DNA of 34,372 nucleotides, taken from Anaerolineae bacterium. Lineage in GTDB: Bacteria > Chloroflexota > Anaerolineae > UBA4142. The number at the start of each line of letters is the position of its first letter. The stretch's first letter is position 1. Below are positions 2,223 to 30,477 of this stretch, in pieces. Where the stretch lies: assembly GCA_026417715.1 (NCBI GenBank), contig JAOACU010000001.1, forward strand, positions 1-34,372, written 5' to 3'. Below the pieces are notes generated by a model. That model saw only the letters and a program-made list of their open reading frames with translations, was not told where the DNA came from and did not search any database. A program made the translations under genes and the position numbers.

Positions 2223-2557
2223 TCACCCAAGACGAAGCGCCAGACACGGCGCGCCGTGATGTGGAGACGTGTGCCTAGCGCGTACAACGTAATCGGCACA
2301 TTGGCAACGCGCGCGGATGTGCGTTGCGTACCTTGTTCGATCCGACGCGCCCAGAGTTGAGCATTCAACAACGGCGCGCGCAACCATCGCCGGAAACGAC
2401 GTAGGTACAATTGCGCGAAATACAAGACGATACCCGGTATCGCAACAAAAAGTATCGTCCAAAAAATTAGCCAAACGAGAGCCAGATCACGCCAAGGAGC
2501 GAAAGGATTTTCCATTTTCGATTGCCAATTGCCGATTTTCGATTGGTTCGCGCACAA
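2219..2557 (-). CDS. small hypothetical membrane protein
   Basis: 112-aa ORF with the hydrophobic segment LALVWLIFWTILFVAIPGIVLYFAQLY followed by an Arg-rich tail. The start is uncertain: the internal ATG at 2515 (MENPFAPW) is equally plausible, because the first 14 codons lie in a tandem-repeat array. The gene lies 23 nt downstream of the NACHT gene stop on the same strand. Confidence 0.5.
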   Translation of the reverse strand: MCANQSKIGNWQSKMENPFAPWRDLALVWLIFWTILFVAIPGIVLYFAQLYLRRFRRWLRAPLLNAQLWARRIEQGTQRTSARVANVPITLYALGTRLHITARRVWRFVLGE

Positions 2558-2580
2558 ATCGCAAATCGAAAATCGAAAAT
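2513..2580. repeat. degenerate 7-mer tandem array in inverted arrangement (TTTCGAT... / ...AAATCG)
   Basis: ttttcgattgccaattgccgattttcgattgg, then a spacer, then caaatcgcaaatcgaaaatcgaaaat. The two halves are approximate reverse complements. Confidence 0.75.
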
Positions 2581-4289: not shown

Positions 4290-4303
4290 GCCGTTGTGTC
4301 AAT

Positions 4304-4396
4304 CACTCTTGGAGAGAAAGAGGTTTCTAGACCTCACAGGTCTCGGAGACCTGTGAGGTCTGAACAAGCCCATTTACCGTTTTCTACCCATGAGTG
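4304..4396 (+). repeat. MITE/REP-like element, family 1 copy A (imperfect terminal inverted repeats plus a central 16-bp-arm palindrome)
   Basis: The core tttctagacctcacaggtctcggagacctgtgaggtctgaacaagcc(c)atttaccgttttctaccca is almost identical, bar a single 1-nt indel, to 32327-32394. The ends cactcttggagagaaa and tttctacccatgagtg are imperfect inverted repeats. Confidence 0.7.
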
Positions 4397-4400
4397 GTCG

Positions 4401-5486: not shown

Positions 5487-5498
5487 AGTGCTCCTTTC

Positions 5499-5569
5499 GT
5501 ATTGCGTAATGCGTATTGCGTAATGCGTATTGCGTAATGCGTATTGCGTGGTGCGTATTGCGTAGTTGC
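5499..5569. repeat. tandem heptamer array GTAWTGC, about 10 units
   Basis: gtattgc gtaatgc gtattgc gtaatgc gtattgc gtaatgc gtattgc gtggtgc gtattgc gtagttgc. It lies in the divergent intergenic region between the peptidase and the TPR gene. Confidence 0.9.
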
Positions 5570-5683
5570 ATTGTAGCACAAGTTGGGACGGCGCGCTAGT
5601 TGGGGTTCGGGTGTGCCGGTGGTGTGAGTTGACAGCAAATAGATTCGATGCGAGAATGAAATTGCAAGACAAAAGGAGTGGAT

Positions 5684-6412
5684 ATGTCGTTCAGAATTCT
5701 TGGTGCTATCGTTTTGTTTCTCGCCATCGGCACAGTCGGTTGTGAAACCGCAACGACGGCGCCACCCTATCCTGCGCCGCCTAGTCTGCCGTCTTCACAA
5801 GCGTATCCTGCCCCACAGATGCCATCCGCCGCGTTGCCTACTCCGTCCCCGATTATGGATTTGTTTCAACGCGCCGAAATCGCATACCACAACGGCAACC
5901 TCGATGCGGCATTCGCCTACTACACTCAAATCATTGAACTTGACCCCAAGAACACCGATGCGTATTACAACCGCGCCATCATTTACGAAGATCAAGGCAA
6001 TCTTGATCAAGCGATTGCCGAGTACACACACATCTTGACGCTCGATCCCAAGTATGTCCGCGCCGTATACAATCGTGGCTTGCTCTACCACAAGCAAGGC
6101 AAACTCGAACAAGCGATTGAAGATTACAGTCGAGCGATGGAACTCGATCCAAAATCACCGCGCCCGTACAACAATCGCGGACTGGTGTACGAAGATTTGG
6201 GCGATCCAACACGCGCGCTTGCCGATTATTCCAAAGCCATCGAACTTAATCCGAATTTTGCACTTGCCTACCTCAATCGCGGTTTGCTCCACCGCGCGCA
6301 AGGACGCAAAGCACAAGCCATCGCCGATTTGGAAAAGTATCTGGAATTGGCACCGCACGCGGCAGACCGCGCACAAGTGGAAGAATGGATCCGTGAATTG
6401 AAAGGAAGGTAA
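5684..6412 (+). CDS. TPR-repeat lipoprotein
   Basis: Signal peptide with lipobox (LAIGTVGC) and a Pro-rich linker, then about five TPR units (A..Y...I.L.P....AYYNRG..Y). ATG 5684 follows AAGGAG at 5673-5678. The ORF track begins 6 nt earlier at a GTG. Confidence 0.85.
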   Translation: MSFRILGAIVLFLAIGTVGCETATTAPPYPAPPSLPSSQAYPAPQMPSAALPTPSPIMDLFQRAEIAYHNGNLDAAFAYYTQIIELDPKNTDAYYNRAIIYEDQGNLDQAIAEYTHILTLDPKYVRAVYNRGLLYHKQGKLEQAIEDYSRAMELDPKSPRPYNNRGLVYEDLGDPTRALADYSKAIELNPNFALAYLNRGLLHRAQGRKAQAIADLEKYLELAPHAADRAQVEEWIRELKGR

Positions 6413-6424
6413 GTTTCAAAAAAG

Positions 6425-7030
6425 ATGCGCGTAATTTCAGGTGTTGCCAAAGGACACCCACTCAAAGCCGCAGGGGCAGCCACGCGACCGATTACCGATC
6501 GCGTCAAAGAAAACCTGTTCAACATTTTAGGTGCGCGGATTGTGGACGCGCGCGTGCTCGATTTGTTCGCGGGCGCCGGCAGTGTTGGCATCGAAGCGTT
6601 GTCGCGCGGCGCGCGCGCGGCAACCTTCGTCGAGGTGGATCGCACTGCGCTGAATGCCATTCGCGCGAATCTGGAGGCAACGCGCCTTGCTGACCGCGCG
6701 CACATCGTACGTCGCGATGTGTTCAAGTTCTTGCGCGACACACCGGAGCCGTACGACCTGATTTACGTTGCGCCGCCGCAATATCAGGGTTTGTGGATGG
6801 GAACGCTGGCATTGCTCGATCAAGGCGCGTGGTTATCCGAATGTGGAGTCGTGGTGGTGCAGATTCACCCGAAGGAGTACAAAGAACTTGCGCTGACGAA
6901 CTTGGTGTTGTTCGATCAGCGCAAGTATGGAAGCACAATGTTGTGTTTCTATCGGCGTGCGTCGGAACGCAAAGCCGATGGCACTCCGAGTTCACCCAGT
7001 AGTTCTATCACCTCGGCATCGCTGGTTTGA
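6425..7030 (+). CDS. rsmD: 16S rRNA (guanine966-N2)-methyltransferase
   Basis: MRVISG..KG..L......TRPT.DRVKE.LFNIL, the SAM motif LDLFAGAGSVGIEALSRGA, and the catalytic-region motif VAPPQY. The last ~27 codons are non-conserved and overlap the convergent gene. Confidence 0.85.
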   Translation: MRVISGVAKGHPLKAAGAATRPITDRVKENLFNILGARIVDARVLDLFAGAGSVGIEALSRGARAATFVEVDRTALNAIRANLEATRLADRAHIVRRDVFKFLRDTPEPYDLIYVAPPQYQGLWMGTLALLDQGAWLSECGVVVVQIHPKEYKELALTNLVLFDQRKYGSTMLCFYRRASERKADGTPSSPSSSITSASLV

Positions 7031-7617: not shown

Positions 7618-7627
7618 CGTCCCCTTA

Positions 7628-7713
7628 CCCAATCATCTAATCACCCAATCACCCAATTACCCAATCATCTAATCACCCAATCACCCAATTACCCAATCAC
7701 CTAATCACCCAAT
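7628..7713. repeat. tandem octamer array AATCACCC, about 11 units, with a 32-bp super-period
   Basis: aatcatct aatcaccc aatcaccc aattaccc, repeated about 2.5 times. It is the reverse complement of the GATTGGGT/GATTRGW arrays at 8158-8227 and 30394-30460. Confidence 0.9.
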
Positions 7714-8238
7714 TTTTCCCAACGCCAACTCAACCGCGTGTTGCGCATCGCGCGCTACCACGATACGCGCGCGCGTGTTCCCGCGCGTCAGTTGCCATGT
7801 GTGCAAGCCGATGACTGGAATCCCGAACTTGAGCGCGAACGCAATTTCGCTCAACGTGCCATACTCACCACCGACGGCGATCACCGCGCGCGCGGTGCGC
7901 ACGACGATACTGTTGCGCGCTTCACCCAAGCCGGTGACAATCGGAATGTCCACGTACGGATTTGCCTCGCGCGGTGTTTTGCCGGGCAGAATGCCAATCG
8001 TCAAACCCCCCGCGCGTTTCGCACCTTTGCACGCGGCTTCCATCACACCACCCAAACCGCCGCATACCACAATCGCGCCGCGTCGCGCCAGTTCGTAACC
8101 CACTTGTTCCGCCAGCGCGTAGGTTTCCGCATCGCAGCGTCGCGCGCCGATGACGGAGATTAGAGATTGGAGATTAGTGATTGGTGATTGGAGATTAGTG
8201 ATTAGAGATTGGTGATTGGAGTTAGAGCGCTTGGACAT
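7705..8238 (-). CDS. TIGR00725-family protein (LOG/SLOG-like Rossmann fold)
   Basis: VVCGGLGGVMEAA.KGA...GG..IGILPG and AVGGEYGTLSEIAFALK are typical of TIGR00725/LOG-like proteins. ATG 8236-8238 has GGAGG upstream. This start avoids overlap with thpR but makes the first ~27 codons a translated heptamer array. Confidence 0.78.
   Translation of the reverse strand: MSKRSNSNHQSLITNLQSPITNLQSLISVIGARRCDAETYALAEQVGYELARRGAIVVCGGLGGVMEAACKGAKRAGGLTIGILPGKTPREANPYVDIPIVTGLGEARNSIVVRTARAVIAVGGEYGTLSEIAFALKFGIPVIGLHTWQLTRGNTRARIVVARDAQHAVELALGKIG
8158..8227. repeat. tandem heptamer array GATTRGW, about 10 units
   Basis: gattaga gattgga gattagt gattggt gattgga gattagt gattaga gattggt gattgga gttagag. 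It is followed at 8240-8272 by a second array, cgtcctc cgtcatc cgtcttc cgtcctc cgtc. Confidence 0.9.
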
Positions 8239-8248
8239 TCGTCCTCCG

Positions 8249-8848
8249 TCATCCGTCTTCCGTCCTCCGTCGCAAAACACATTCCGCCAACCGCGTATAC
8301 ACACTTCCCTCTGGCGTCAAATCACTCTTCATCACCGCGACGCGTTCGACGCGCAATTCACCCACATCGCCGATACGCGCTGCTTCGATGAGCGCGCCGA
8401 TGCGTTGGCGTTCGCTGGGCGAGGCGTCGCGTTTGACACGTCCGAGTGTGAGATGCGGTGTGAACGCGCGTTCTTCGCGCGCAAAGCCGAACGTAGCACA
8501 CGCCGCGTCAATGTGTTCGGCAAGACGCGCGGCAACGTCCACTTGTCCGCGCGCGCCAACCCAGATGACGTTGGGTTTGCGCATGTTCGGAAACGCGCCT
8601 GCGCCACCAATTGTCAAGGTGAATGGCGCAAAATCATTGCAGACTTGCGCGATAGCGCGTTCAAGCGCAGGAATGCGCGCGGCGTCCACATCGCCCAAGA
8701 ATTTGAGTGTGATGTGAATGTTTTCTGGAGCCACCCAGCGAATCGCGCGCGCGACTGTGTCGCGTTTGAGCCGCGCTTGGACATCGGCAAGCGCGCGATG
8801 CAACGCGTCGTTCAACTCGATGGCAATAAAAGTGCGGATGGGTTGCAT
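8249..8848 (-). CDS. thpR: RNA 2',3'-cyclic phosphodiesterase (2H phosphoesterase, LigT/ThpR family)
   Basis: Two H-x-T/S-x motifs sit in the expected context (HITLKFLG and HLTLGR), with a typical length of 199 aa. Confidence 0.85.
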   Translation of the reverse strand: MQPIRTFIAIELNDALHRALADVQARLKRDTVARAIRWVAPENIHITLKFLGDVDAARIPALERAIAQVCNDFAPFTLTIGGAGAFPNMRKPNVIWVGARGQVDVAARLAEHIDAACATFGFAREERAFTPHLTLGRVKRDASPSERQRIGALIEAARIGDVGELRVERVAVMKSDLTPEGSVYTRLAECVLRRRTEDG

Positions 8849-8922
8849 AAACCCATTTTACTCCAGATGGGAATGCGCCGCAAATGTAACATCAGAGCGC
8901 GTCGCCGACTCTAGATTCGCAT

Positions 8923-8951
8923 TTGAAAAAAATGCGCACGAGTGTTACAAT
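8923..8951 (+). promoter_or_regulatory. candidate sigma-70-type promoter for the speE-like/metH operon
   Basis: TTGAAA (8923-8928), a 17-nt spacer, then TGt-TACAAT (-10 at 8946-8951, extended TG at 8943-8944). It lies about 40 nt upstream of the GTG start at 8989. Confidence 0.45.
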
Positions 8952-8988: not shown

Positions 8989-10512
8989 GTGACCTCACAA
9001 CGTAATTGGCTATGGCAACCGAATCTCATCGTTTTTATTTCGAGCGCGTGCATTATGATTTTGGAACTGGTAGCGGGGCGAATGATTGCACCCCACGTCG
9101 GCTCGTCGTTGTACACGTGGACGAGTGTGATTGGTGTAGTACTCGCTGGTATCTCACTAGGCAATTATCTGGGCGGACGCTTGGCAGATCGCTGGGCATC
9201 GTTACGATTCTTGGGCGCAGTGTATCTGCTTGCCGCCATCACCTCATTCTTCATCCTGTGGGTGGATCGCATCGGACGTGTCACGCCGAATGACTGGCCC
9301 ATCGTCGCCGAAATTCTGGTGCTTACAACAGCGATGTTTTTTGTGCCCTGCACGATTCTGGGAATGATTTCGCCAATCGTCGCGAAACTCGCGGTGAGCG
9401 ATTTGGCAACGACGGGAAGCACCGTCGGGAAAATTTACGCCGCCGGCGCGCTGGGCAGTATTGTCGGTACGTTCGCGACTGGCTTTGTATTGATTTCGTG
9501 GTTCGGCACGTACACGATTGTTATCGGCGTCGCGCTCTTGCTTGGCGCGCTCGGCATCGTGTTCCTCTTGGGTGCGCGTTGGCAAGCGGCAGCACTCGCG
9601 CTGCTCGTCATCATTGGTGGCGCGACACTCGCGATCAATCAAGGTTGGAACAAAGGTCCGTGTGCACGTGAGACGAATTACTATTGCATCAAGGTTTACA
9701 ATGACAACGTGGGTGGCGAACCGATTCGATTGCTAGTGCTCGATCACCTTGTCCACAGTTACGTGTCGCTGACCGATCCGACCACGCTCATCTATGGTTA
9801 CGAAAAAATTTACGCCGAGATGGCGCAGTATCGCGCGCGCACCAAGTCGCCGCCCGATGTGTTGATGATTGGCGGCGGTGGCTATACGTTCGCGCGCTAT
9901 ATGAAAGCCGTTTATCCCGAAACGGCAATGCACGTCATCGAGATTGATCCTGGCGTCACCGAATTCGCGTACGCGGAACTTGCACTCAAACCCGAATGGA
10001 ACATTCTCACGTGGAACGAAGACGCGCGCACCTTTTTCGCGCGTCCTCCTTCGCGCAAATACGATTTGATTTTGGGCGATGCGTTCAATCACTATTCCGT
10101 GCCCTATCACCTCACGACCAAAGAATTCAACGAACGCGTGCGCGAGTGGTTGACGGACGATGGCTTGTACGTCGTCAACATCATTGACGGACCATACGGC
10201 GAATTTGTGCGCGCGTACTTTCACACGCTCCGTCAAACGTTCAAGCACGTGTATCTCGTGGTGGGCAATTACGCATGGCGCGAAGTCTCACGCAGTTTCT
10301 TTGTTTTGATTAGCACGGACAAGCCGATGGATTTAGCAACGCTGGCAAGTTGCGATGCGGGTGATGGCGACACGCTCACGATGCGTTTGCTGGCTGGCGA
10401 TGGCGAAATCAATCGCTTGTTGACCGAAGCACCGCTCATCACCTTGACGGATCAGTACGCGCCGGTGGATCAAATGCTGGCGTCAGTGTTCCAAGAGACC
10501 AAACCCAAGTGA
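8989..10512 (+). CDS. membrane-fused spermidine synthase-like (polyamine aminopropyltransferase family) protein
   Basis: The N-terminal ~210 aa form multiple hydrophobic helices. The C-terminal half has class-I methyltransferase/spermidine-synthase-like motifs (VLMIGGGGYTFARY, EIDPGV, ILGDAFN). GTG start, with AAGGAG 7 nt upstream. Confidence 0.78.
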   Translation: MTSQRNWLWQPNLIVFISSACIMILELVAGRMIAPHVGSSLYTWTSVIGVVLAGISLGNYLGGRLADRWASLRFLGAVYLLAAITSFFILWVDRIGRVTPNDWPIVAEILVLTTAMFFVPCTILGMISPIVAKLAVSDLATTGSTVGKIYAAGALGSIVGTFATGFVLISWFGTYTIVIGVALLLGALGIVFLLGARWQAAALALLVIIGGATLAINQGWNKGPCARETNYYCIKVYNDNVGGEPIRLLVLDHLVHSYVSLTDPTTLIYGYEKIYAEMAQYRARTKSPPDVLMIGGGGYTFARYMKAVYPETAMHVIEIDPGVTEFAYAELALKPEWNILTWNEDARTFFARPPSRKYDLILGDAFNHYSVPYHLTTKEFNERVREWLTDDGLYVVNIIDGPYGEFVRAYFHTLRQTFKHVYLVVGNYAWREVSRSFFVLISTDKPMDLATLASCDAGDGDTLTMRLLAGDGEINRLLTEAPLITLTDQYAPVDQMLASVFQETKPK

Positions 10513-10556
10513 TACGCAATACGTGATACGTGATAAGTGATACGTGATATGTGATG
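10509..10556. repeat. tandem heptamer array GTGATAC, about 7 units, filling the whole intergenic gap
   Basis: gtgatac gcaatac gtgatac gtgataa gtgatac gtgatat gtgatga. It contains the TGA stop of the upstream gene and the GTG/ATG start of metH. Confidence 0.9.
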
Positions 10557-16140: not shown

Positions 16141-16244
16141 GTCACGCTGAGCGCAGCGAAGCGTCTCGCAAAGTCCTTTGAGAGATTCTTGCTTCGGCTT
16201 CGCTCAGCACCGCGAAAAACGCGCCTCAGAATGACACCGTCGGC
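16141..16244 (-). repeat. MITE-like repeat, family 2 (GTCATTCTGAGG...GCTGAGCGAAGC type), long copy
   Basis: The reverse complement gccgacGgtgtcattctgaggcgc...gcggtgctgagcgaagcCgaag... matches 32465-32533. There is an internal inverted repeat, gctgagcgcagcgaagc / gcttcggcttcgctcagc. The tracked 67-aa ORF here (..VTLSAAKRL..) is a translation of the repeat. Confidence 0.65.
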
Positions 16245-16328
16245 ATTACTTTTTGATCACCACCCATCACGAATCTGCCACGCGACGGTCAGCGCTCCTT
16301 CGTCGTCCGTCGTTGATTCGGAGGCAAA

Positions 16329-18233: not shown

Positions 18234-18824
18234 ATGCTCGCACGTGTTGGCAAACCCGCGCCCGATTTTGAAGCGAACGCGTTCATCGGCGAAGGGTTCA
18301 AACCCATCAAACTCTCGGATTACAAAGGCAAGTGGGTCGTCCTGTGCTTTTATCCCGGCGACTTTACCTTCGTCTGACCGACCGAACTCGCGGCGGTCGC
18401 CGCGCGATACGATGAATTCAAAGCGCTGGGTGTCGAAATTCTCGCGATGAGCACGGATAGTCGCTTTGTGCACAAGATTTGGCAAGAGCAAGAATTGTCC
18501 AAGATGGTGCAAGGCGGCGTGCCTTTCCCGATGTTGACCGATGCCGGCGGTAAGATTGGCACTGCGTACGGCGTGTACGATGAAGACGCAGGCGTGGACA
18601 TTCGCGGACGATTTATCATTGATCCCGATGGCGTCATTATGGCGATGGAAGTGCTCACGCCCGAAGTCGGTCGCAATCCCGATGAGTTGATTCGCCAAAT
18701 CAAAGCGTATCAACACGTCAAAAAGACGGGCGAAGTCACACCTTCTGGTTGGCAACCCGGTCAACCGACGTTGAAGCCAGGTCCCGCACTCGTGGGCAAA
18801 GTGTGGGAGGTTTGGAAGCCGTAG
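18234..18824 (+). CDS. peroxiredoxin (AhpC/Prx1 type) with an in-frame UGA at the peroxidatic position, a probable selenocysteine peroxiredoxin
   Basis: Two tracked ORFs (18045..18377 and 18447..18824) share one frame and are separated only by TGA 18375-18377, with no other stop between them. The joined protein reads ..[14 protein letters not shown][TGA]PTELAA.., STDS.F.H..W, RG.FIIDP.G, GRN.DE..R. ATG 18234 follows GGAGGTG at 18221-18227. Confidence 0.85.
18389..18404 (+). promoter_or_regulatory. candidate bacterial SECIS stem-loop
   Basis: CGCGGC-GGTC-GCCGCG is a perfect 6-bp stem that starts exactly 11 nt after the UGA. Its GGUC apical loop resembles the E. coli fdhF minimal SECIS as I recall it. 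Confidence 0.6.
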
Positions 18825-18825
18825 T

Positions 18826-18870
18826 TGGAGATTGGAGAATAGAGGTTAGAGAATAGAGATTGGAGATTGA
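18826..18870. repeat. tandem heptamer array GATTGGA/GAATAGA, about 6 units
   Basis: gattgga gaataga ggttaga gaataga gattgga gattgaa, immediately after the prx stop. Confidence 0.85.
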
Positions 18871-18906
18871 AGACCTGAAGGGTTTTGAATCCTTCGGGTC
18901 TTTTTG
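18871..18906 (+). terminator. rho-independent terminator of the peroxiredoxin gene
   Basis: agacctgaagg-gttttgaat-ccttcgggtct is an 11-bp stem with one G:U pair, followed by tttttgcatttt. Confidence 0.7.
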
Positions 18907-19712: not shown

Positions 19713-19720
19713 GGGCATCC

Positions 19721-19815
19721 CCAGAAATCGCCTCAACGAATGGCAACGAATAAACGAATGAGCACCGCGCAGATTCGTTGATTCGTTCAGGATTCATTGA
19801 GGCGGATTTCCAGAA
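19721..19815. repeat. long imperfect palindrome built from AACGAAT / ATTCGTT units
   Basis: Left arm: ccagaaatcgcctcaacgaatggcaacgaataaacgaatg. Right arm: cagattcgttgattcgttcaggattcattgaggcggatttccagaa. The arms are approximate reverse complements. Confidence 0.6.
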
Positions 19816-19892
19816 TCAAACTTGAATATCTTATAGAACCTCTTTTTCCCAAAAGAGCGATGCCCAATTAAGGCGACTCAGGGCCGTCCCTA

Positions 19893-19992
19893 CCTTTCGC
19901 GCCCTTTCGCGCCCTTTCGCGTCCTTTCGCGTCCTTTCGCGCCCTTTCGCGTCCTTTCGCGTCCTTTCGTACTCTTTCGCGTTTCTTTCGCG
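19893..19992. repeat. 10-bp tandem repeat CCTTTCGCGY, 10 units (7 near-perfect, 3 degenerate)
   Basis: Direct reading gives cctttcgcgc x2, ..gcgt x2, ..gcgc, ..gcgt x2, then degenerate units. Partial inverted copies cgcgaaa / cgaaacgcgaaat follow at 19999-20027. Confidence 0.92.
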
Positions 19993-20044
19993 TCTGCCGC
20001 GCGAAAATCGTGACCGAAACGCGAAATTTCCAAAAGGCAAACGA

Positions 20045-20737: not shown

Positions 20738-20741
20738 ATCA

Positions 20742-20772
20742 GACCTCACAGGTCCCAAAGACCTGTGAGGTC
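20742..20772 (+). terminator. 13-bp perfect hairpin (solo copy of the family-1 palindrome core) after the DUF2085 gene
   Basis: gacctcacaggtc-ccaaa-gacctgtgaggtc. These are the same arms as the centre of the elements at 4304-4396 and 32309-32398. There is no U-tract. Confidence 0.55.
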
Positions 20773-20822
20773 AACTAGAGAGCTCCATCGTCCGCGCGCG
20801 CGGACGGTGTGTGGAGTTGCCA

Positions 20823-22541
20823 ATGCGTCGTTTTTTTACCCCTCCTGTCATTCCGCGACCTGCTTTCCAAGTCGGCGATGCGCTGATTCTTTTCGGCGTG
20901 ATCGTCGTGCTGTACGTTGGCGTACGGCTGGCATTTGCTGCACCCGCTGTTGTGCGCGGTCCTGAGATTGATCTCGCGCCGACAAGTTTGCCGTGGTACG
21001 CCGCGCTTTCCGTCGGACGTATGTTTGCCGCGTATCTGCTTTCGATGACGTTCACCCTCATCGTTGGCTATGCCGCCGCGCGGCATCGTACTGCCGAGAT
21101 GATCATCTTGCCGATTCTCGATGTTTTGCAATCAGTGCCGATTCTCTCGTTTCTCCCCGTCGTTGTGTTGAGTCTCACCGCGATCTTGCCCGAAGATTTT
21201 GCGGTTGAACTGGGTTCGATCGTTTTGATTTTTACGAGTCAAGCGTGGAATCTCACGTTCAGTTTCTATCAATCGCTCAAGACTGTGCCAAGCGATTTGC
21301 GCGAGGCGGCGCAGATTTTTCGGTTGAACGCGTGGTTGCGCTTTCGCACGCTGGAACTTCCGTTTGCTGGCATTCCGTTGCTCTGGAACAGTATGATGAG
21401 TTGGGCAGGCGGTTGGTTCTTTCTGATGGCGGCGGAAATTTTTACCGTCGGCGAACGCGACTTTCGATTGGCGGGCTTGGGCGCGTACTTGCAAACTGCC
21501 GCGCACGCGGGCGATGTCACTGCAATCGTGTGGGGACTCGCCGCGCTCGTCGCGGTGATTGTGTTGCTCGATCAACTCGTTTGGCGACCGTTGCTCGCGT
21601 GGGCAGACAAATTCAAACTCGAAATGGTCGAAGCGGACGAGCCACCCGAATCGTGGGCGTACGATGTGTGGCAACGTTCGCGCTTGGGACGCGCCTTTTA
21701 CGCGCGCGTGCGGCGTCCATTTCTCGAATGGCTGGATGCGCGCGCCTCGAATCTACTAGCAACGGTGCGCGTCCGTGAGAATCGCGTATCGTGGTTATCG
21801 CGTGGATTGCTCGGCATCCTCGCGCTCGTCATCATCGGCGCGTTCATCTGGGGGATGGGACAAGCGATCACACTCTTGATGCGCTTGCCGCTCGAGGCGT
21901 GGACGCAAATCGCGCTGGGTGCGCTGGCATCGTTCGTGCGCGTGGTCGTTGCACTTCTGATTGCGCTCGCGTGGACAGTGCCGCTTGGTGTGACCATCGG
22001 TTTGAATCGGCGTATCGCCGCGATTTTGCAACCGATTGTCCAAGTGGTTGCCGCGATTCCCGCCACTGCACTCTTTCCGATTGTGCTCGTCATCCTGATT
22101 CGCGCGGCGGGTGGCTTGGACATTGCCGCGATTTTGTTGATGCTGATGGGAACGCAATGGTACTTGCTCTTTAACGTCATTGCGGGCGCGGCGGCGATTC
22201 CGCAGGATTTGATTTACACAACCGAGACGCTGGGGATTCGCGGTTGGGAGAAATGGCGCACGTTGATTCTACCCGCGCTCTTTCCGTACTTGATTACAGG
22301 AATGATTACAGCGACGGGCGGTAGTTGGAACGCGACGATTGTCGCCGAGTACGTCACCTTTGGCGGACAAACCCTTCAAACGATTGGCTTGGGCGCGTTG
22401 ATTGCCGGTGCGACCGCGCAAGGCGATTACGCGCTCTTGCTCGCGGCGACTGTGACGATGATCACGATTGTAGTGGTGTTGAATCGCGCGTTCTGGCGAC
22501 GCTTGTATCGCGCGGCGGAAGAGCGGTATCGGATGGACTGA
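20823..22541 (+). CDS. ABC transporter permease with duplicated BPD-type permease domains (nitrate/sulfonate/bicarbonate-like anion family)
   Basis: About 570 aa with two internally similar multi-helix halves and EAA-like loops (LREAAQIFRL.. and TETLGIRGWEKWRTLILP). ATG 20823 has GGAG 6 nt upstream. The track starts at GTG 20811. Confidence 0.82.
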   Translation: MRRFFTPPVIPRPAFQVGDALILFGVIVVLYVGVRLAFAAPAVVRGPEIDLAPTSLPWYAALSVGRMFAAYLLSMTFTLIVGYAAARHRTAEMIILPILDVLQSVPILSFLPVVVLSLTAILPEDFAVELGSIVLIFTSQAWNLTFSFYQSLKTVPSDLREAAQIFRLNAWLRFRTLELPFAGIPLLWNSMMSWAGGWFFLMAAEIFTVGERDFRLAGLGAYLQTAAHAGDVTAIVWGLAALVAVIVLLDQLVWRPLLAWADKFKLEMVEADEPPESWAYDVWQRSRLGRAFYARVRRPFLEWLDARASNLLATVRVRENRVSWLSRGLLGILALVIIGAFIWGMGQAITLLMRLPLEAWTQIALGALASFVRVVVALLIALAWTVPLGVTIGLNRRIAAILQPIVQVVAAIPATALFPIVLVILIRAAGGLDIAAILLMLMGTQWYLLFNVIAGAAAIPQDLIYTTETLGIRGWEKWRTLILPALFPYLITGMITATGGSWNATIVAEYVTFGGQTLQTIGLGALIAGATAQGDYALLLAATVTMITIVVVLNRAFWRRLYRAAEERYRMD

Positions 22542-22553
22542 ACGGAGGCAACG

Positions 22554-23840
22554 ATGGCACAAAACGGAGTCTTGCTGGAACTGCGAGGAGTCGGAAAATT
22601 TTACGGACGTGGTGAACGACGCATTGATGCCGTAGCCAACGTGAACTTTGTGATTCGCGAGGGTGAGTTTGTTGCGCTGTTGGGTCCCTCGGGTTGTGGC
22701 AAGTCCACGCTACTACGCATCATCACTGGACTCGCGCCTGCCAGCGCGGGCGAAGTGTTGTATCGCGGCGAGCCGTTGCGCGGTGTCAATCCACACGCGA
22801 CGATTGTCTTTCAAACATTCGCGCTCTACCCTTGGCTCACGGTGCAGGCAAACGTCGAAGTCGCGTTGAAAGCGCGCGGCGTTCCACCTGACGCGCGCCG
22901 CGAACGCGCACTCAAGTTGATTGACCTCGTTGGTCTCGATGGTTTCGAGTCGGCGTATCCGCGCGAATTATCGGGTGGGATGCGGCAGAAGGTTGGGTTT
23001 GCGCGCGCGCTCGCGGTCGAACCGGAATTGTTGTGCCTCGATGAACCATTCTCCGCGCTCGATGTCTTGTCGGCAGAAGCGTTGCGCGGTGAATTGATGG
23101 AGTTGTGGACAAGTCGCGCGATGCCGACGCGCGCGATTTTGCTCGTCACGCACAACATCGAAGAAGCGGTGTTTATGGCGGATCGGATTATCGTGATGGA
23201 CAAAGACCCCGGACGCGTGATCAACGAAGTCGAAGTCACACTGCCGCATCCGCGTCATCGCAAAGATTTGCGTTTTCTTGCGATGGTGGATCGCGTCTAT
23301 GCGGCAGTCGCGGGCGAAACACCCAAAGATGTGACGATGCTGGGTGTTGCACCAGACGAAGCCGGCAAAACCGAAATGTTGCCACACGCACCAATCAATG
23401 CGATTGCCGGTTTGGTCGAGCATCTGGCAGAGGAAGGCAAGCGCGTGGATATGTATCGGGTGGGTGATGATTTGGGAATGGAACTCGACGATTTTTTGCC
23501 GACGGTGGAAGCCGCAGAACTACTGGGCTTTGTGACCGTGCAAGAAGGCGATATTACACTCACGCCGCTCGGCCAAACGTTTGCCGGCACGACAATCATC
23601 GCGCGCAAGGAAATTTTTGCGCAACGGATTCGTCATCAACCGACGATTCGTTGGATCATCGAAGAGTTGCAAGCCGCTGAGGAGCATCGCCTAGCCGAAG
23701 AATTTTTCTTGGAGACGCTGCAACGCCACTTTACACCCGACGAAGCGGAACGGCAGTTGGACATCGCGATCAATTGGGGTCGCTACGCCGAAGTGTTCGA
23801 GTTCGACGACGATCGCGACGAGTTGTATCTGCCTATCTGA
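22554..23840 (+). CDS. ABC transporter ATP-binding protein (NitT/TauT-like) with a C-terminal AAA-associated domain
   Basis: Walker A is GPSGCGKST, the signature is LSGGMRQKV, Walker B is LLCLDEPFSALD and the H-loop is VTHN. An extra ~170-aa C-terminal domain follows. GGAGG lies upstream of the ATG. Confidence 0.9.
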   Translation: MAQNGVLLELRGVGKFYGRGERRIDAVANVNFVIREGEFVALLGPSGCGKSTLLRIITGLAPASAGEVLYRGEPLRGVNPHATIVFQTFALYPWLTVQANVEVALKARGVPPDARRERALKLIDLVGLDGFESAYPRELSGGMRQKVGFARALAVEPELLCLDEPFSALDVLSAEALRGELMELWTSRAMPTRAILLVTHNIEEAVFMADRIIVMDKDPGRVINEVEVTLPHPRHRKDLRFLAMVDRVYAAVAGETPKDVTMLGVAPDEAGKTEMLPHAPINAIAGLVEHLAEEGKRVDMYRVGDDLGMELDDFLPTVEAAELLGFVTVQEGDITLTPLGQTFAGTTIIARKEIFAQRIRHQPTIRWIIEELQAAEEHRLAEEFFLETLQRHFTPDEAERQLDIAINWGRYAEVFEFDDDRDELYLPI

Positions 23841-23951
23841 GTATCACACCTCGTACGTAATTTGCTTGTGCGCGCAGGATTCGCTATAATTTTGACGAAA
23901 GACCAAAGACGAACGACGAAGGCATTCATCGTTCGTCCTAGGAGTGAAGGT

Positions 23952-26147: not shown

Positions 26148-26186
26148 ATTGTAGGGGCGAGTCAGCGACTCGCCCTTACAATTTTT
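26148..26186. terminator. bidirectional rho-independent terminator between convergent genes
   Basis: attgtaggggcgagtc-agc-gactcgcccttacaat is a 16-bp stem with one G:T, followed by ttttt on the + strand. Confidence 0.75.
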
Positions 26187-27270: not shown

Positions 27271-27285
27271 TGTTTCTCCCAAGTG

Positions 27286-27398
27286 AATCAGTAAACCAGT
27301 AAATCAGTGAGACAGTGGGACGGTGAGACAGTGAGACAGTGCCCGACCTTACTGTCCCTCTGTTCCACTGTTCTACCGTCCAACTGTCTTACTGTTCC
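27286..27398. repeat. inverted pair of octamer arrays (GAGACAGT x~7 / ACTGTCYY x~6)
   Basis: aatcagt aaaccagt aaatcagt gagacagt gggacggt gagacagt gagacagt, then gcccgacctt, then actgtccc tctgttcc actgttct accgtcca actgtctt actgttcc. It can fold as a long imperfect hairpin. Confidence 0.88.
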
Positions 27399-27682
27399 AC
27401 CGCGCGCTCACCAATCATCCACCGCGCGTCCACGTAACGGGCATAGCCCCACGCTTGCAAATTCTTGATGGCGCGGTCAATCGCGCGCGCGTCATCGGCT
27501 TCCCAAACCTCGATGAACGCGCCTGGTGTTGACGTCAACCGATAGCCGAGTAGCGGAGTCAGATTGCAGACGCTCAACGTTCTACCCACACGTTCGATGA
27601 AACTATGTTTTTGTTCGGTGGTCAACGTTTGCCAATCGTCGGTATAGCGCCCGATGATGATGAGCGCGGTTCGCGTACGCAT
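27389..27682 (-). CDS. small hypothetical protein (about 97 aa), family not recognised
   Basis: The ORF has ATG at 27680-27682 and GGAG just upstream, and its composition is globular-looking. The tracked TTG start at 27697 lies inside the ssb terminator hairpin. Confidence 0.55.
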   Translation of the reverse strand: MRTRTALIIIGRYTDDWQTLTTEQKHSFIERVGRTLSVCNLTPLLGYRLTSTPGAFIEVWEADDARAIDRAIKNLQAWGYARYVDARWMIGERAVEQ

Positions 27683-27695
27683 TTTCTCCACTGAC

Positions 27696-27725
27696 AAAAG
27701 AGCCGCTTGGTGTCAAGCGGCTCTT
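27696..27725 (-). terminator. rho-independent terminator downstream of ssb
   Basis: aagagccgcttg-gtgt-caagcggctctt is a perfect 12-bp stem, with a T-run on the minus strand immediately after it. Confidence 0.65.
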
Positions 27726-27740
27726 GCAATAGCACCAGCG

Positions 27741-28178
27741 TTAGAACGGTACTTCGTCATTATTGCTCGTCAGTTCATCTACGTCAGGTAGAGCGGCTGA
27801 ACCGTTGGTTGTCCCAGTGCTTGCGGTGGCTTCGCGCTTGCTCTCCATAAAGCGCACGGTGTAGGCGCGCACTTCAAACGAGGCGCGCGGTTTGCCATCT
27901 CGATCCGTCCAGATGCGCGGACCACCATTTTCATCGCCAATCAAACTACCTTCCACGAGCACGCGTCGTCCTTTGGTCAAATACTGATTCGCGATCTCGG
28001 CTTGCTTGCCCCACACCGAAACACGAAACCAAACCGTTTCTTCTTTTTGTTGTCCGTCGGCTGTAGTGTAGCGACGATTCGTTGCAACAGGAAACGAAGT
28101 GACCGGTGTGCCCTGTGGTGTGTAACGCATCTCAGGGTCGCGTCCCAAGTACCCAACCAGAACAAGTCGTTGATACAT
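27741..28178 (-). CDS. ssb: single-stranded DNA-binding protein
   Basis: The OB-fold N-terminus is LVGYLGRDPEMRYTPQG..V..F.VA. A Gly/Thr-rich linker follows, and the acidic tail ends NNDEVPF. Confidence 0.92.
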   Translation of the reverse strand: MYQRLVLVGYLGRDPEMRYTPQGTPVTSFPVATNRRYTTADGQQKEETVWFRVSVWGKQAEIANQYLTKGRRVLVEGSLIGDENGGPRIWTDRDGKPRASFEVRAYTVRFMESKREATASTGTTNGSAALPDVDELTSNNDEVPF

Positions 28179-28272
28179 TTTTGTCTCCTCCTTACTAAAC
28201 CAAATACCCCAACTCGCGGTGCTTGTTCGCGATTATAGCATTCATTCGTGACATTGGCAAGCGGGGATCGCT

Positions 28273-28419
28273 CAATGAGCCAATTGCCCAATTGACCAAT
28301 GAGCCAAAAGGACGAAGAACGAAAGACGGAGGACGAAAAGATTTGGCTCATTGGCTCATTGGTTCATTGGCTCATTGACTCATTGGTTCATTGGCTCATT
28401 GATTCATTGGCTCATTGAC
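28273..28419. repeat. composite array: CAATGAGC x4, then GGACGAA x4, then GCTCATTG x~9 (outer arrays inverted)
   Basis: caatgagc caattgcc caattgac caatgagc, then aaaaggacgaagaacgaaagacggaggacgaaaag, then ggctcattg gctcattg gttcattg gctcattg actcattg gttcattg gctcattg attcattg gctcattg. Confidence 0.9.
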
Positions 28420-30393
28420 GAACTGCCGTTCGTACAACTGCCGATACAAGCCGCCCAGCGCGAGCAACTCGTCGTGCGTGCCGCGCTCGACGATGCGCCC
28501 GTCGTTCACGACGCAAATCAAATCCGCATTCCGAATCGTCGAGAGACGATGCGCGATCACGATGGCGGTGCGCCCAACGAGTAAACGCGCGAGTGCGTCT
28601 TGAATCAGTACTTCGGTCAGCGTGTCCACGCTCGCGGTCGCTTCGTCGAGAATCAGGATGCGCGGATTCGCGAGTACCGCGCGCGCGATGCAAATCAACT
28701 GTCGCTGTCCCACTGAAAGATTCACACCGCCTTCGAGGATTTCGGTGTCGTAGCCAGCGGGGAGCGCGGCGATAAAGTCGTGCGCGTTGGCAAGGCGCGC
28801 CGCGTCTTCGATTTCGCGTGGTGTAGCGTCGGGATGCCCAAAGCGAATGTTGTCAGCAATCGTTCCTGCGAACAGGAACGGTTCTTGCGGCACGATGCCC
28901 GTTTGTCGTCGCAGTGAGCGTTGTGTGACCGCGCGCACATCGTAGCCGTCAATCAACACTGCGCCCGCGCTCACATCGTACAGACGCGCGATGAGATTGG
29001 CGATGGACGTTTTGCCCGCGCCAGTGGGACCGACGAGCGCGATGGTTTGACCGGGTTCGATGACGAGATTCACGTCGCGCAAGACGTAATTTGGAGCCAC
29101 AGGGGACACAGAGGACACAGAGAATTTTTCCTCTGTGTTTTCTGTGGCAGAACGGGGATACGCGAACGACACGTCGCGCAGGACGTAATTTGAAACCACA
29201 GGGGACACAGAGGGCGCAGGAGAAATTCTTTTCTCTGTGTTCCCTGTGTCCTCTGTGGCAAACTTGCGATACGCGAACGATACATTCCGCAATTCGATGC
29301 GTCCGACGATGGGCGGCATTTCGATTGCATCGCGCGCGTCGCGCACATCGGGTTGCGTATCGAGCAATTCCAACACGCGCTCGCCGCCTGCCATCGCGGC
29401 TTGCATCGTCGTGTAAAGTTGACTCAACTCTTGAATCGGCTGAAAGAATCGCGTGACGTACGCGAGGAACGCAACGACCACCCCGAGCGTGATTTCCTCG
29501 CCAATCACTGCGAGACCACCGAACCACAAGACGATGCCCGTCGCCAGCATTCCCAAAAATTCGACCGTCGGCAAAAAGATGAACGAGAGCGTCATCGCCG
29601 CAACGTGCGCGTCACGATTCGCGCGATTCACCTCGTCGAAATGTTCTTGCGACGATTCCTCTTGCGCGAACGCTTGAATCACGCGCATCCCACTGATATT
29701 CTCGGCGAGATCGCCAACAACTGCCGCGATGCGCGCACGCGTCTCGCGAAACGCCACTTGGGCTTGACGCGCAAAGAGCCACGTGGCTAGCACCATCAAC
29801 GGTAGAACGCAAAACGTGATGAGTGCGAGGCGCGGACTCATCGAGAGCATCACCGCGACGATACCAACGAGCACGACCGCGTCACCCGCAAACGTCACCA
29901 CGCCTTGCGACAAGAGATCGTTGATGACGGAAACATCGTTGATGACGCGTGAAATCGTCACGCCGACGATGTGTGTATCGTGATAACCGAGCGGGAGGGT
30001 TTGTAGATGCCGAAACAGTTGCGCGCGCAAAGTTGCTAGAACTTGCTGACCGACCCACGCAAGGATGTATTGCAACAACGCCGTCGTTGCGTAGATCGCG
30101 AGGAAAACACCTGCGAGTGCAAGCGCAACGCGCGCGAGTCCTGCCGCATCGCCGCGCGCAATGTGCTCGTCAATCGCGACCTTGATGAGGTACGGCGCGC
30201 TGAGCGTCAACGCCGATGAAATCAGCACGAGCGCGATCGCGAGCGTCATCTTGCGCCAATGCGGACGCAAGTACGTGAGTAACCGCGCGACGATGCGCGG
30301 ATCGAACGAATGTGCTTCTTTGTGTTGTCCAAAATCTTCCAAAGCACTGCGCGGTCCCATTCCCGCGCTGGCTGCACCGATGGAGATGGTCAT
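28396..30393 (-). CDS. ABC exporter, fused permease/ATPase (MsbA/MdlB-like half transporter), carrying an in-frame repeat insertion in the NBD
   Basis: A six-helix TMD is followed by an NBD with GPTGAGKTS, LSVGQRQL and ILILDEATASVD. The insertion lies between the VSFAY (A-loop) and VLRDV segments. Confidence 0.9.
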   Translation of the reverse strand: MTISIGAASAGMGPRSALEDFGQHKEAHSFDPRIVARLLTYLRPHWRKMTLAIALVLISSALTLSAPYLIKVAIDEHIARGDAAGLARVALALAGVFLAIYATTALLQYILAWVGQQVLATLRAQLFRHLQTLPLGYHDTHIVGVTISRVINDVSVINDLLSQGVVTFAGDAVVLVGIVAVMLSMSPRLALITFCVLPLMVLATWLFARQAQVAFRETRARIAAVVGDLAENISGMRVIQAFAQEESSQEHFDEVNRANRDAHVAAMTLSFIFLPTVEFLGMLATGIVLWFGGLAVIGEEITLGVVVAFLAYVTRFFQPIQELSQLYTTMQAAMAGGERVLELLDTQPDVRDARDAIEMPPIVGRIELRNVSFAYRKFATEDTGNTEKRISPAPSVSPVVSNYVLRDVSFAYPRSATENTEEKFSVSSVSPVAPNYVLRDVNLVIEPGQTIALVGPTGAGKTSIANLIARLYDVSAGAVLIDGYDVRAVTQRSLRRQTGIVPQEPFLFAGTIADNIRFGHPDATPREIEDAARLANAHDFIAALPAGYDTEILEGGVNLSVGQRQLICIARAVLANPRILILDEATASVDTLTEVLIQDALARLLVGRTAIVIAHRLSTIRNADLICVVNDGRIVERGTHDELLALGGLYRQLYERQFVNEPMNQ
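29071..29280. repeat. tandem duplication (99 bp + 111 bp) of a palindromic CCACAG(A/G)GGACACAGAG element with flanking host codons, in frame within the ABC gene
   Basis: Both units begin cacgtcgcgcaRgacgtaattt and end ..tacgcgaacga. Each has a central inverted repeat, for example cacagaggacacagag-aatttttc-ctctgtgttttctgtgg. Both unit lengths are multiples of 3. Confidence 0.85.
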
Positions 30394-30477
30394 AGAGATT
30401 GGAGATTAGAGATTAGTGATTGGTGATTAGGTGATTGGGTGATTGGGTGATTGGGTGATTCGTCCTTCGTCTTTCCG
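30394..30477. repeat. tandem 7/8-mer array GATTRGW to GATTGGGT, followed by CGTCCTT-type units
   Basis: gattgga gattaga gattagt gattggt gattaggt gattgggt x3, then gattcgtccttcgtctttccg. It spans the gap between the two ABC exporter genes and contains the TAA stop of the upstream one. Confidence 0.9.

Follow-up and report, generated by a model that had tools for sequence, protein, structure and literature searches.

Arrays of heptamers in cyanobacterial DNA have been known since 1990, and heptamer repeats were later reported to be over-represented in many bacteria. The canonical units of the cyanobacterial STRRs (short tandemly repeated repetitive sequences) are said to be CCCCAGT, TTGGTCA and CAACAGT, a set ascribed to Mazel et al. 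in 1990, and an STRR reportedly sits also in a tolerated place of a functional gene, that of RNase P RNA, to go by the title of a 1997 paper by Vioque. In Nostoc, 7-bp STRRs that are able to form hairpins lie between hupS and hupL, and their function is unknown (PMC2670836). Here we have analyzed a 34,372-nt stretch of an Anaerolineae bacterium (Chloroflexota; UBA4142; assembly GCA_026417715.1, contig JAOACU010000001.1, positions 1 to 34,372; hereafter the window), in which an initial annotation had noticed at least eleven tandem arrays of degenerate 7-10-nt units in the intergenic gaps and had likened them to STRRs. The arrays are genuine and occur far beyond chance, and on balance they are probably products of slippage and template switching at the DNA level, with some exchange between arrays, that persist where constraint is weak.

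The resemblance to STRRs stood as far as form is concerned, i.e. tandem, degenerate and mostly heptameric arrays at gene boundaries, some of them with hairpins, but it did not extend to the units themselves: no tandem pair of the STRR1-3 units, nor of GATAGRA, TAACTGA, GGGAATC or GGGGAYT, was found in the window when up to one mismatch was allowed. Like STRRs, the arrays have mostly 7-bp units, are present at many loci, lie between presumably co-transcribed genes and can form hairpins. In contrast to STRRs, their host belongs to the Anaerolineae and not to the heterocystous cyanobacteria, 8-mers are as prominent as 7-mers, one array is built of 10-mers, and many unit families are found within 34 kb.

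A second group to be compared is that of the long simple sequence repeats, for which PMC4692102 cites a 2007 survey by Mrazek and co-workers describing an excess of heptamers, and which include GGGAATC of Xanthomonas and GGGGAYT of Nostoc. The window arrays show the properties by which such repeats are recognized, namely a 5-11-nt tandem unit beyond chance, a preference for non-coding DNA and length variation between genomes. Both groups share unit lengths of 5-11 nt, the heptamer excess, the intergenic preference, occasional inverted pairs, and variation in length and sequence between related species at the same intergenic positions. However, the Xanthomonas and Nostoc repeats consist of a single G-rich, quadruplex-prone family per genus, whereas the window holds several AT-richer families that are not based on G runs, and, unlike those repeats, the window arrays overlap stop and start codons and lie in frame in genes.

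Within the same phylum, Chloroflexus aurantiacus carries (GATAGRA)n satellites scattered in its genome, and it tops the bacterial part of a table of selected satellite-rich species (PMC6749651). These satellites are also derived from a heptamer, and GATTAGA and GAATAGA in the window are similar to it in composition, but the unit of the window arrays is not GATAGRA and the class of the host differs; the 14.4 satellites per Mb of C. aurantiacus (PMC6749651) and the ~350 arrays per Mb of the window were counted by different criteria and are not comparable. The TAACTGA repeats of marine Beggiatoaceae are heptamers located a few nucleotides from start codons, in gaps without a canonical Shine-Dalgarno (SD) site and occasionally in open reading frames (ORFs) (PMC4679880). 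Their hosts are filamentous bacteria, and the window likewise has heptamer arrays near starts, gaps devoid of SD sites and some arrays in ORFs. However, TAACTGA is one unit, mostly in 2-6 copies and mostly in a single orientation, whereas in the window the units are many, are repeated up to 11 times, stand in both orientations and frequently form inverted pairs.

Two further systems concern repeats inside genes. Rickettsia palindromic elements (RPEs) are inserted in frame in unrelated housekeeping genes at positions tolerated by the protein fold (PMC10969869). An insert in a loop of the ABC exporter ABC1 of the window and the arrays in loops of MetH recall them, but RPEs are families of ~150 bp with a conserved sequence, whereas here short tandem units differ by site and by species. 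The tandem repeats of Borgs are reportedly near-perfect and longer, with ORF units that are multiples of 3. They are fast-evolving, arise locally, lie between genes as well as in frame, and generate new peptide segments (PMC9879509); they belong to archaeal extrachromosomal elements, whereas the present arrays are bacterial and have degenerate 7-8-nt units even in ORFs, except for the 9-nt unit of the ABC1 insert. By the criterion of unit sequence, the arrays fail to belong to any sequence-defined family, as the published units are absent and the host differs; they are a new lineage example of the known STRR-like heptamer repeats and not a new kind of element. We found nothing relevant in the literature on tandem repeats of Anaerolineae, and no paper describing such arrays there.

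The host of the window is a member of the Anaerolineae, in agreement with the non-cyanobacterial origin proposed at the outset: the top relatives of its MetH protein in one-genome-per-species and metagenome collections were all metagenome-assembled genomes (MAGs) of Anaerolineales/Chloroflexota with no more than 77% identity, the best values being 76-77% in GTDB representatives and JGI metagenome contigs, two collections that do not contain the species of the window. Look-ups of the exact SSB and MetH proteins of the window found no record of either. Its GC content (0.56) is moderate, and the "high-GC gene context" of the initial annotation was therefore an overstatement. Pfam searches revealed ordinary housekeeping genes, i.e. 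a peptide-binding protein, a NACHT-HEAT protein, an M24 peptidase, a TPR protein, an RsmD-like methyltransferase, a phosphoribosyltransferase, a SLOG/TIGR00725 protein, LigT, MetH, an MTHFR fusion, a peroxiredoxin, DUF364 and DUF2085 proteins, ABC transporter parts, a thioredoxin-like protein, an Mrp/ParA ATPase, the single-stranded DNA-binding protein SSB, and two ABC exporters (ABC1 and ABC2). Gene starts are our own calls from ORFs, SD sites, Pfam coordinates and homologues.

Tandem Repeats Finder (TRF; period 6-11, at least 3.5 copies, score of at least 40) detected 12 arrays in the window, compared with a mean of 0.005 and a maximum of 1 in 200 dinucleotide-preserving shuffles, and hence far more than chance would give. 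A lag-autocorrelation scan, which does not depend on a scoring scheme and takes the fraction of bases identical at a given lag across 28 nt, placed 8 segments of the window at lag 7, 5 at lag 8 and a single one at lag 10; lags 4-6, 9 and 11-13 were empty. All 12 TRF arrays are at gene boundaries, although non-coding DNA makes up only ~9% of the window; they are present in 10 of the ~20 non-coding gaps of at least 30 nt and, by our arithmetic, account for about a quarter of the ~3.1 kb of non-coding DNA. The very high density relative to the number of intergenic regions, as initially perceived, is thus real, with 0.35 arrays per kb in the window versus 0.16 in close relatives and ~0.02 in other Anaerolineae loci (2.5 Mb), and about half of the gaps of at least 30 nt filled.

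Every one of the eleven arrays reported earlier was recovered by TRF with its coordinates and unit. Their placement in intergenic gaps was accurate insofar as they lie at gene boundaries, but they also overlap stop and start codons, encode protein termini and lie in frame within genes. Two arrays had been missed, at 23894-23940 and, in frame within an ABC exporter gene, at 29089-29265, as had the fact that about half of the arrays are inverted array pairs folding into long hairpins. Rfam (gathering thresholds) and tRNA scans gave no match, so that no known RNA family accounts for any array, and a CRISPR array was ruled out because the units are contiguous and without spacers. The arrays are the following.

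A1, 2506..2580, minus strand: inverted pair CGATTTT/CGATTGC ... AAATCGA (TRF), filling the gap from the NACHT-HEAT stop (2580) to the start of a small membrane ORF (ATG 2515).

A2, 5498..5569, minus strand: (CGTATTG/CGTAATG) x10 with a 14-nt higher-order period (TRF); on the sense strand it makes up the leader of the M24 peptidase gene (ATG 5486), flanked by a conserved -10-like sequence and the SD site.

A3, 7625..7713, minus strand: (ACCCAATC) x11, sense reading ATTGGGTG (TRF), between the stop of SLOG and the SD site that precedes the phosphoribosyltransferase start (ATG 7617).

A4a, 8156..8227, minus strand: (GATTRGW) x10, sense reading CCAATCN, within the SLOG frame and coding for the N-terminal extension of SLOG (MSKRSNSNHQSLITNLQSPITNLQSLIS-VIGAR...).

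A4b, 8236..8271, minus strand: (CMTCCGT) x5, sense GACGGAG/GACGAAT (TRF), including the LigT stop (8249), an SD-like GGAGG and the SLOG ATG (8238).

A5, 10509..10555, plus strand: (GTGATAC) x6.7 (TRF and sequence reading), running from the TGA of the upstream gene (10510-10512) to the MetH ATG 10554, with no SD site.

A6, 18825..18873, plus strand: (TTGGAGA/GATTGGA) x7 (TRF), between the peroxiredoxin stop (18824) and a canonical intrinsic terminator (18869-18903).

A7, 19721..19815, plus strand: palindromic, with arms that are AACGAAT/ATTCGTT arrays, 3' of the DUF364 gene.

A8, 19893..20030, plus strand: (CCTTTCGCGY) x10 and then partial inverted copies (GCGCGAAA...CGAAACGCGAAA), upstream of the DUF2085 gene (ATG 20045); TRF gives period 10 and 8.9 copies.

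Ax, 23894..23940, plus strand: (GACGAAM) x4 plus a short inverted arm (TRF), in the leader of the thioredoxin-like gene (ATG 23952), downstream of the -10-like GCTATAAT.

A9, 27282..27400, minus strand: inverted pair (CAGTRAGA)n / (ACTGTCYY)n, a ~45-bp hairpin that separates the stop of a 97-aa ORF (27389) from the SD site and the start (ATG 27270) of the Mrp/ParA-type ATPase gene.

A10, 28273..28419, minus strand: tripartite (CAATGAGC)n - (GGACGAA)n - (TTGGCTCA)n, a long hairpin (TRF), between the ABC1 stop (28396) and a promoter-like site of the SSB gene (28260-28232); one arm encodes the last residues of ABC1.

ABC1 insert, 29089..29265, minus strand: in frame in the nucleotide-binding domain; two tandem hairpin copies of (ACAGRGRAM)n plus its reverse complement, with 9-nt units.

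A11, 30393..30477, minus strand: composite of (GATTRGW)n, (GGTGATTG)n and (TTCGTCY)n (TRF), encoding the last 17 residues of ABC2 (stop 30427) and abutting the ABC1 ATG (30393), with no SD site.

The statement that different loci use different units proved to be only partly right, because several units are in use but a few families recur, and distant arrays hold near-identical multi-unit blocks. The GATTRGN(N) family starts at 7625, 8156, 18825 and 30393, and its GATTGG form had been correctly reported four times and in both orientations (7625-7713, reverse; 8156-8227; 18825-18873; 30393-30460). The GGACGRA family is present at 8236, 23894, 28308 and 30461, and weakly near 16300, i.e. 4-5 times within 34 kb, and the CGTATYR family twice, at 5498 and, inverted, at 10509, A5 being 70% complementary to A2 (GTGATAC/GCAATAC and CGTATTG constitute one family). 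Blocks of 34-39 nt with 92-97% identity are shared by arrays 22 kb apart: the 30393-30430 region matches 8156-8198, and 30422-30460, when inverted, agrees with 7671-7709 in 38 of 39 positions (97%). A11 is a chimera of A4-like 7-mers and A3-like 8-mers, and its 8-mer block is specific to the window, being absent from the orthologous arrays of the relatives; this absence, together with its being an inverted near-copy of A3, points to a transfer between arrays.

The units are degenerate, with TRF matches of 69-94%, and the arrays have a higher-order structure. Thus, A2 repeats with a period of 14 nt at 94% versus 7 nt at 83%, A3 with 32 nt at 98% versus 8 nt at 82%, and a further higher-order period of 24 nt reaches 94% versus 85% for 8 nt. 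Since the higher-order periods are more regular than the base period, these values indicate recent duplications of blocks. Most arrays are richer in AT than the genome (GC 0.28-0.47), and several make use of only three of the four bases.

Folding of the transcribed RNA strand separated the arrays into two classes. Those in a single orientation are nearly structure-free, with minimum free energies from 0 to -5.6 (0.0 at 8156-8230; -0.4 for A6 at 18822-18873, which lacks any C across 49 nt; -1.2 for A11 at 30390-30480; -5.6 for A2 at 5495-5572, z = +0.3). The inverted pairs (2506-2580, 19721-19815, 19893-20030, 27282-27400 and 28273-28419) form long hairpins with z from -3.0 to -6.5, the values being -24.1 kcal/mol and z = -3.0 for A1 (2500-2585), -38.3 kcal/mol and z = -5.4 for A7 (19715-19818), z = -4.5 for A8 (19890-20040), -53.8 kcal/mol and z = -6.5 for A9 (27280-27402), and -56.9 kcal/mol and z = -5.6 for A10 (28268-28422); the Ax fold gives z = -2.5 (23885-23950). 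A role in termination at mRNA 3' ends, one of the functions suggested initially, does not agree with the fact that the hairpin arrays carry no T-tracts, apart from the opposite-strand Ax hairpin and a 13-nt A11 stem, and that canonical terminators lie elsewhere in the window (e.g. 18869-18903). A terminator scan did not list A1, A7, A8, A9 or A10, and its only matches touching arrays were the Ax hairpin (23906-23939) and the A11 stem, both on the strand opposite to the flanking gene. Likewise, a promoter reading was discarded, as promoter-like hexamers are not commoner than in shuffles and the arrays lie downstream of -10 elements wherever these could be located.

Typically, an array takes up the whole distance between a stop codon and the SD site or start codon that follows, and six arrays end 0-16 nt from a start codon. 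At MetH and ABC1 the array reaches the start codon itself (10513-10553 and 30394-30426) and no recognizable SD sequence is present, whereas most of the 18 related MetH loci inspected have a GGAG-type SD-like motif closely upstream of the aligned start. Reading frames stay open through the arrays in MetH, SLOG and ABC1. In SLOG, the Pfam domain begins at residue 48 of the maximal ORF, i.e. after A4a; there is no ATG, GTG or TTG between 8238 and 8103, and the sole possible start is ATG 8238 after GGAGG. The SLOG frame is the only one free of stops across A4a, and SLOG homologues at 78-91% identity have related (P)ISNLQSLI N-termini. In ABC1, the insert adds ~60 residues where solved ABCB structures have 5.

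This location raises the question of whether the arrays are functional cis-elements under selection, that is, 7-8-nt sites for a single-strand nucleic-acid-binding protein (cold-shock, ribosomal protein S1 or CsrA-like) or spacers, which would set translation initiation, coupling and mRNA stability in operons. The proximity to start codons, the arrays that take the SD place at MetH and ABC1 while related MetH loci are mostly SD-like, and the single-orientation arrays with their lack of structure and three-base composition would fit such a role, and the GACGRAG arrays carry repeated GGA/GGAG. The binding site of CspB is a heptanucleotide (PMC1904285), a similar role has been put forward for the TAACTGA repeats, which likewise replace SD sites (PMC4679880), and STRR hairpins were suggested to stabilize transcripts or to couple translation (PMC2670836). 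We nevertheless regard a selected cis-element function as unlikely. The orientation of a family with respect to the transcript is mixed, the RNA containing GAUUGG at 7625 and 18825 and CCAAUC at 8156 and 30393, and the presence of both orientations speaks against a role specific for the RNA strand. Arrays are also found in 3' untranslated regions (UTRs), protein loops and gene termini, and in later work CspB bound ATTGG and CCAAT only weakly. A cold-shock "Y-box" (ATTGG) role for the GATTGG family was therefore retained only as a weak rival, in view of this low affinity and the mixed orientation.

Additional evidence came from syntenic contigs of related species (L161-L176), which were collected by SLOG, SSB and ABC1 protein searches and have coding nucleotide identities of 79-85% to the window. 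Comparison of array lengths between related species, as the initial annotation had proposed, revealed that orthologous arrays vary in copy number. A1 measures 45 nt in L162, 53 nt in L165 (the L162 array plus one unit) and 64 nt in the window, always with the same family. At the LigT/SLOG junction, GACGRAG copies of A4b number 5 in the window, 5 in L161, 9 in L162, 4-5 in L165 and 8 in L166, and the CCAATCN copies of A4a amount to 10 in the window and 4-6 in L161, L162 and L166 (6, ~5 and ~4), and are decayed in L165. The A11 composite is orthologous in L173-L176, with 4.1, 4.6 and 6.0 copies versus ~9 in the window. The Ax orthologue of L173 has ~5 units and a longer inverted arm, and none is present in L176. 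Among ABC1 orthologues at 78-89% identity, the insert is found in 0, 1 (of variable length) or 2 copies, with 2 in the window only.

At other places the units themselves are exchanged. The M24 leader contains (TCGGCGG) x4 in L162 and L165 versus (CGCAATA/CGCATTA) x10 in the window, in all three directly after the same -10-like CCCAACTTGTGsTAmAAT. The place of A7 in L176 is occupied by (GGCGGTC) x5 at the 3' end of DUF364, and the A10 site of L174-L176 by TTTGGCACA 9-mers; A8 is absent at the corresponding position of L173 and L176, where the gene order differs. The gap before mrp harbors the A9 family and a hairpin in L173 (110 nt), a direct GACGRAG array that supplies the SD site in L174-L176 (34 nt), a hairpin of other units in L167, and no array in L168. 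That some array or some hairpin is kept at the same gap across species, and that one GACGRAG array provides the mrp SD site, would be in agreement with cis-element function; in contrast, the units at the same gap are unrelated between species, and A3, A8 and the second ABC1 insert are missing in close relatives, which manage with 10-19-nt gaps. The short ordinary gaps of the relatives, together with the arrays in UTRs, protein loops and gene termini, argue against an RNA-strand-specific function. Two adjacent cold-shock-domain genes are located a few kilobases from the ABC2/ABC1 array locus in L174 (3319-3957) and L175 (564-1202), and one may speculate that they are candidates for repeat binding. 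The gene order is otherwise conserved in these contigs, and the absence of the TPR gene (5684-6412, plus strand) from the syntenic L162 and L165 and of an ABC permease/ATPase pair (20811-23840, plus strand) from L173 and L176 looks like lineage-specific gains or losses.

The array-free sites indicate what the arrays may have grown from. At the A3 site, four related species have only a 10-19-nt gap with an SD site, and A3 begins with a unit identical to the 8 nt in which the native SLOG gene ends, two bases of the stop being counted in (in L165, AAAATTGGATGA). The SLOG end of L165 reads AAAATTGGATGA-AGGGGGAACG-ATG, and the window keeps the native SD site after A3. Hence A3, as read from these alignments, looks like an in-place amplification of a native seed at the SLOG gene end that includes the stop; alternatively, the array might have integrated at a site of microhomology. 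In L168, which has no array at this site, the gene upstream of mrp ends with ...GGCAGTGA followed by GA, i.e. one CAGTGAGA unit, and the A9 unit CAGTGAGA thus matches the upstream gene end. The promoter-proximal arm of A10 is orthologous in L173, and the other arm extends the native ABC1 tail GTCAAyGAGCCAATGAA. These seed matches of A9 and A10 appear to point, more weakly, to in-place growth like that of A3.

The identity of the first unit of A3 and A9 with native flanking gene sequence bears also on the possibility that the arrays, and the inverted pairs in particular, represent non-autonomous mobile elements of the type of MITEs (miniature transposable elements with inverted repeats), repetitive extragenic palindromes (REPs) or RPEs, spread by an enzyme encoded elsewhere, since it fits growth in place and not insertion. 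Moreover, each hairpin has its own unit, without shared termini or recognizable target-site duplications, orthologous arrays differ by whole units, and Pfam revealed no transposase-like gene in the window. Mobility would account for the near-identical blocks common to distant arrays, for families at non-orthologous sites (CCAATGAG in the window, L168 and L169; a GATTGG inverted pair in L162; CAATTAC in L005, L008 and L012) and for the palindromic in-frame ABC1 insert, which shows presence/absence polymorphism and recalls RPEs (PMC10969869), and classical dispersed palindromic elements do exist in the window. Taking both sides together, we consider a mobile origin quite improbable.

The same comparison addressed the reality of the arrays at the level of assembly. 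In the relatives, the ends of several short-read contigs coincide with arrays or lie close to them (the first bases of L161, 1-27, belong to an array; the start of L167 and the end of L168 lie beside array sites), as would be expected of artefacts of assembly or sequencing. However, the arrays are degenerate with a higher-order structure, assemblies made independently from different samples have the same arrays at orthologous positions, and frames are maintained in MetH, SLOG and ABC1, so that an artefact, which had been named beforehand as a way in which the arrays could prove spurious, is extremely unlikely. The arrays disturb short-read assembly but are not made by it, and MAGs likely under-represent them.

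To place the window in a wider context we used 160 related Anaerolineae loci (~2.5 Mb, or 2.56 Mb with the window), long-read assemblies included. Arrays are present in 27 of them, and the array density of the window is ~15 times the average of the set. In the window and the 160 loci together, 41 arrays have a period of 7, 20 a period of 8 and none a period of 6, so that periods are almost only 7 or 8, and lags 7 and 8 dominate even over the codon-favored lags 6, 9 and 12. About half of the arrays of the relatives lie within long ORFs. Among 143 intact MetH genes, 18 arrays fall in five variable regions, four of them recurrent, and are always in frame; different units occupy the same site in MetH genes that are 83-91% identical between species. 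In five of these 18 the length is precisely the modal one of orthologues that lack an array, the linker having become periodic without net insertion. The only clearly expanding coding array, the ABC1 insert, is the one with a 9-nt unit. In L081, L084 and L085 a structured leader upstream of MetH contains a terminator-like hairpin (...GAGAGATGAGAGATG...GTCGCCTCTCA...GAGAGGCG-TTTT); nothing comparable exists in the window, and this leader is possibly a riboswitch candidate.

Taken together, these results make slippage and template switching at the DNA level, with some exchange between arrays, the explanation that we favor, if with reservation. A slippage origin for the heptamer excess has been proposed before, as cited in PMC4692102. 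In the scenario envisaged here, a native short sequence at the edge of a constrained region, such as a stretch with an SD site or the 7-8 nt with which a gene ends, stop codon included, would be duplicated in tandem by replication slippage or short-range template switching, and blocks of 2-4 units would be duplicated later. A template switch to the complementary strand would generate inverted copies and hence hairpin-forming array pairs, and ectopic recombination or gene conversion would move blocks between arrays with a common core. The products would persist where constraint is weak, i.e. in intercistronic gaps, leaders, 3' UTRs, gene termini and protein surface loops, and in the loops only frame-preserving outcomes would survive purifying selection. 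Many arrays would begin at stop codons because an extra copy of a gene end is costless, the first stop still terminating translation. Being presumably co-transcribed with the flanking genes, single-orientation arrays would become nearly structure-free leaders or spacers of three bases, in place of the SD site at MetH and ABC1, and inverted pairs would become long intercistronic stem-loops. Effects on the transcript would then be secondary and in most cases close to neutral, although a few old and conserved arrays may have been co-opted.

Several observations weigh against this explanation. Some arrays are old and have kept their position, possibly because they are functional: a TTTTCGATT/AATCGAAAA hairpin before the small ORF is kept in three species, and in all five species compared ABC1 has an array leader and no SD site, a conservation that counts in favor of cis-elements as well. 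Identical units at non-orthologous sites across lineages make 7 pairs versus 0.9 +/- 0.9 expected from composition, and 35 shared-unit pairs versus 16 +/- 4 expected were found with up to one mismatch; this non-orthologous sharing is not predicted by plain random seeding. The GATTGG family has no C in 278 nt despite ~20% unit variation, which suggests constraint or biased variation, although as a proof of selection this was rejected and is suggestive at best, since it comprises just ~8-10 independent variant types. Finally, L152 and L155, whose flanks are 98-99% identical and which are the sole near-identical contig pair with an array, show no change in array length, so the arrays are not hypermutable at this scale. 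The conserved ABC1 leader and hairpin, the three-base composition, the shared units and the SD-less MetH and ABC1 genes may keep a functional reading alive.

The latter pair, thin evidence though it is, bears equally on the phase-variable length suggested by the initial annotation, i.e. on contingency loci in which changes in unit number switch adjacent or overlapping genes. Units of 7-8 nt are not a multiple of 3, a change of one unit in the N-terminal array of SLOG shifts the frame, and copy number varies between species. However, contingency loci are very improbable here, since the arrays are degenerate (69-94% match), are associated with housekeeping genes and operons (MetH, SSB, peptidase, transporters), lie mostly outside promoter spacers and coding frames, and are identical in contigs from three sequencing runs that share an identical SLOG protein.

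A broader and more tentative idea, which we consider possible but doubtful, is that a clade of Anaerolineae has a peculiarity of replication or repair that causes slippage and template switching in a 7-8-nt register, with protein loops being overwritten and some of the products co-opted. Weakly constrained DNA would then continuously give rise to direct and inverted arrays from SD regions and stop-bearing gene ends, essential enzymes such as MetH would have their surface loops overwritten, sometimes at unchanged length, and some arrays would be co-opted as intercistronic hairpins or as SD-independent, structure-free leaders (for ABC1 in five species and for MetH here). If this were true, the genus would be a natural system for asking why bacterial tandem repeats favor heptamers and how repeats become functional. 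The window is unusually dense in arrays and comes with an informative comparative series, in which seed-only empty sites, short arrays, long higher-order arrays, inverted pairs, and protein termini and loops stand side by side as intermediate stages, making the origin by growth from gene ends, the 7-8-nt preference and the co-option as SD-less leaders testable within one genus. In practical terms, the arrays break short-read assemblies and mislead gene callers on starts and stops, e.g. at the SLOG N-terminus and the ABC2 C-terminus.

Some other features of the window deserve mention. The peroxiredoxin gene upstream of A6 (18234-18824, plus strand) is neither split nor broken; the position of its peroxidatic cysteine is taken exactly by an in-frame TGA (DFTFV*PTEL), with a hairpin GCGGC-GGUC-GCCGC ~17 nt downstream of the TGA that has no Rfam match; from its sequence, it looks like a candidate selenocysteine protein with a bacterial SECIS-like (selenocysteine insertion sequence) element. 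Next to A1, two small membrane-protein ORFs of ~98 and ~108 aa (1896-2515, minus strand) are joined by an ATGA stop/start overlap and have no Pfam match, and both are conserved downstream of the NACHT-HEAT gene in L162 and L165. The RsmD-like gene and the phosphoribosyltransferase gene are convergent and share an 82-nt 3' overlap (6949-7030), which is also called in related contigs. An element of the ...GCTGAGCGAAGCG... type is dispersed in two array-free gaps (16184-16265 and 32444-32525, inverted, 78% over 82 nt). Another dispersed element, a palindrome of ~90 nt with the core AGACCTCACAGGTCTCGGAGACCTGTGAGGTCT, is present at 4306-4394 and 32310-32397 (95% identical), with a short copy at 20741-20772; unlike the arrays, it is a repeat of the classical REP- or MITE-like type.

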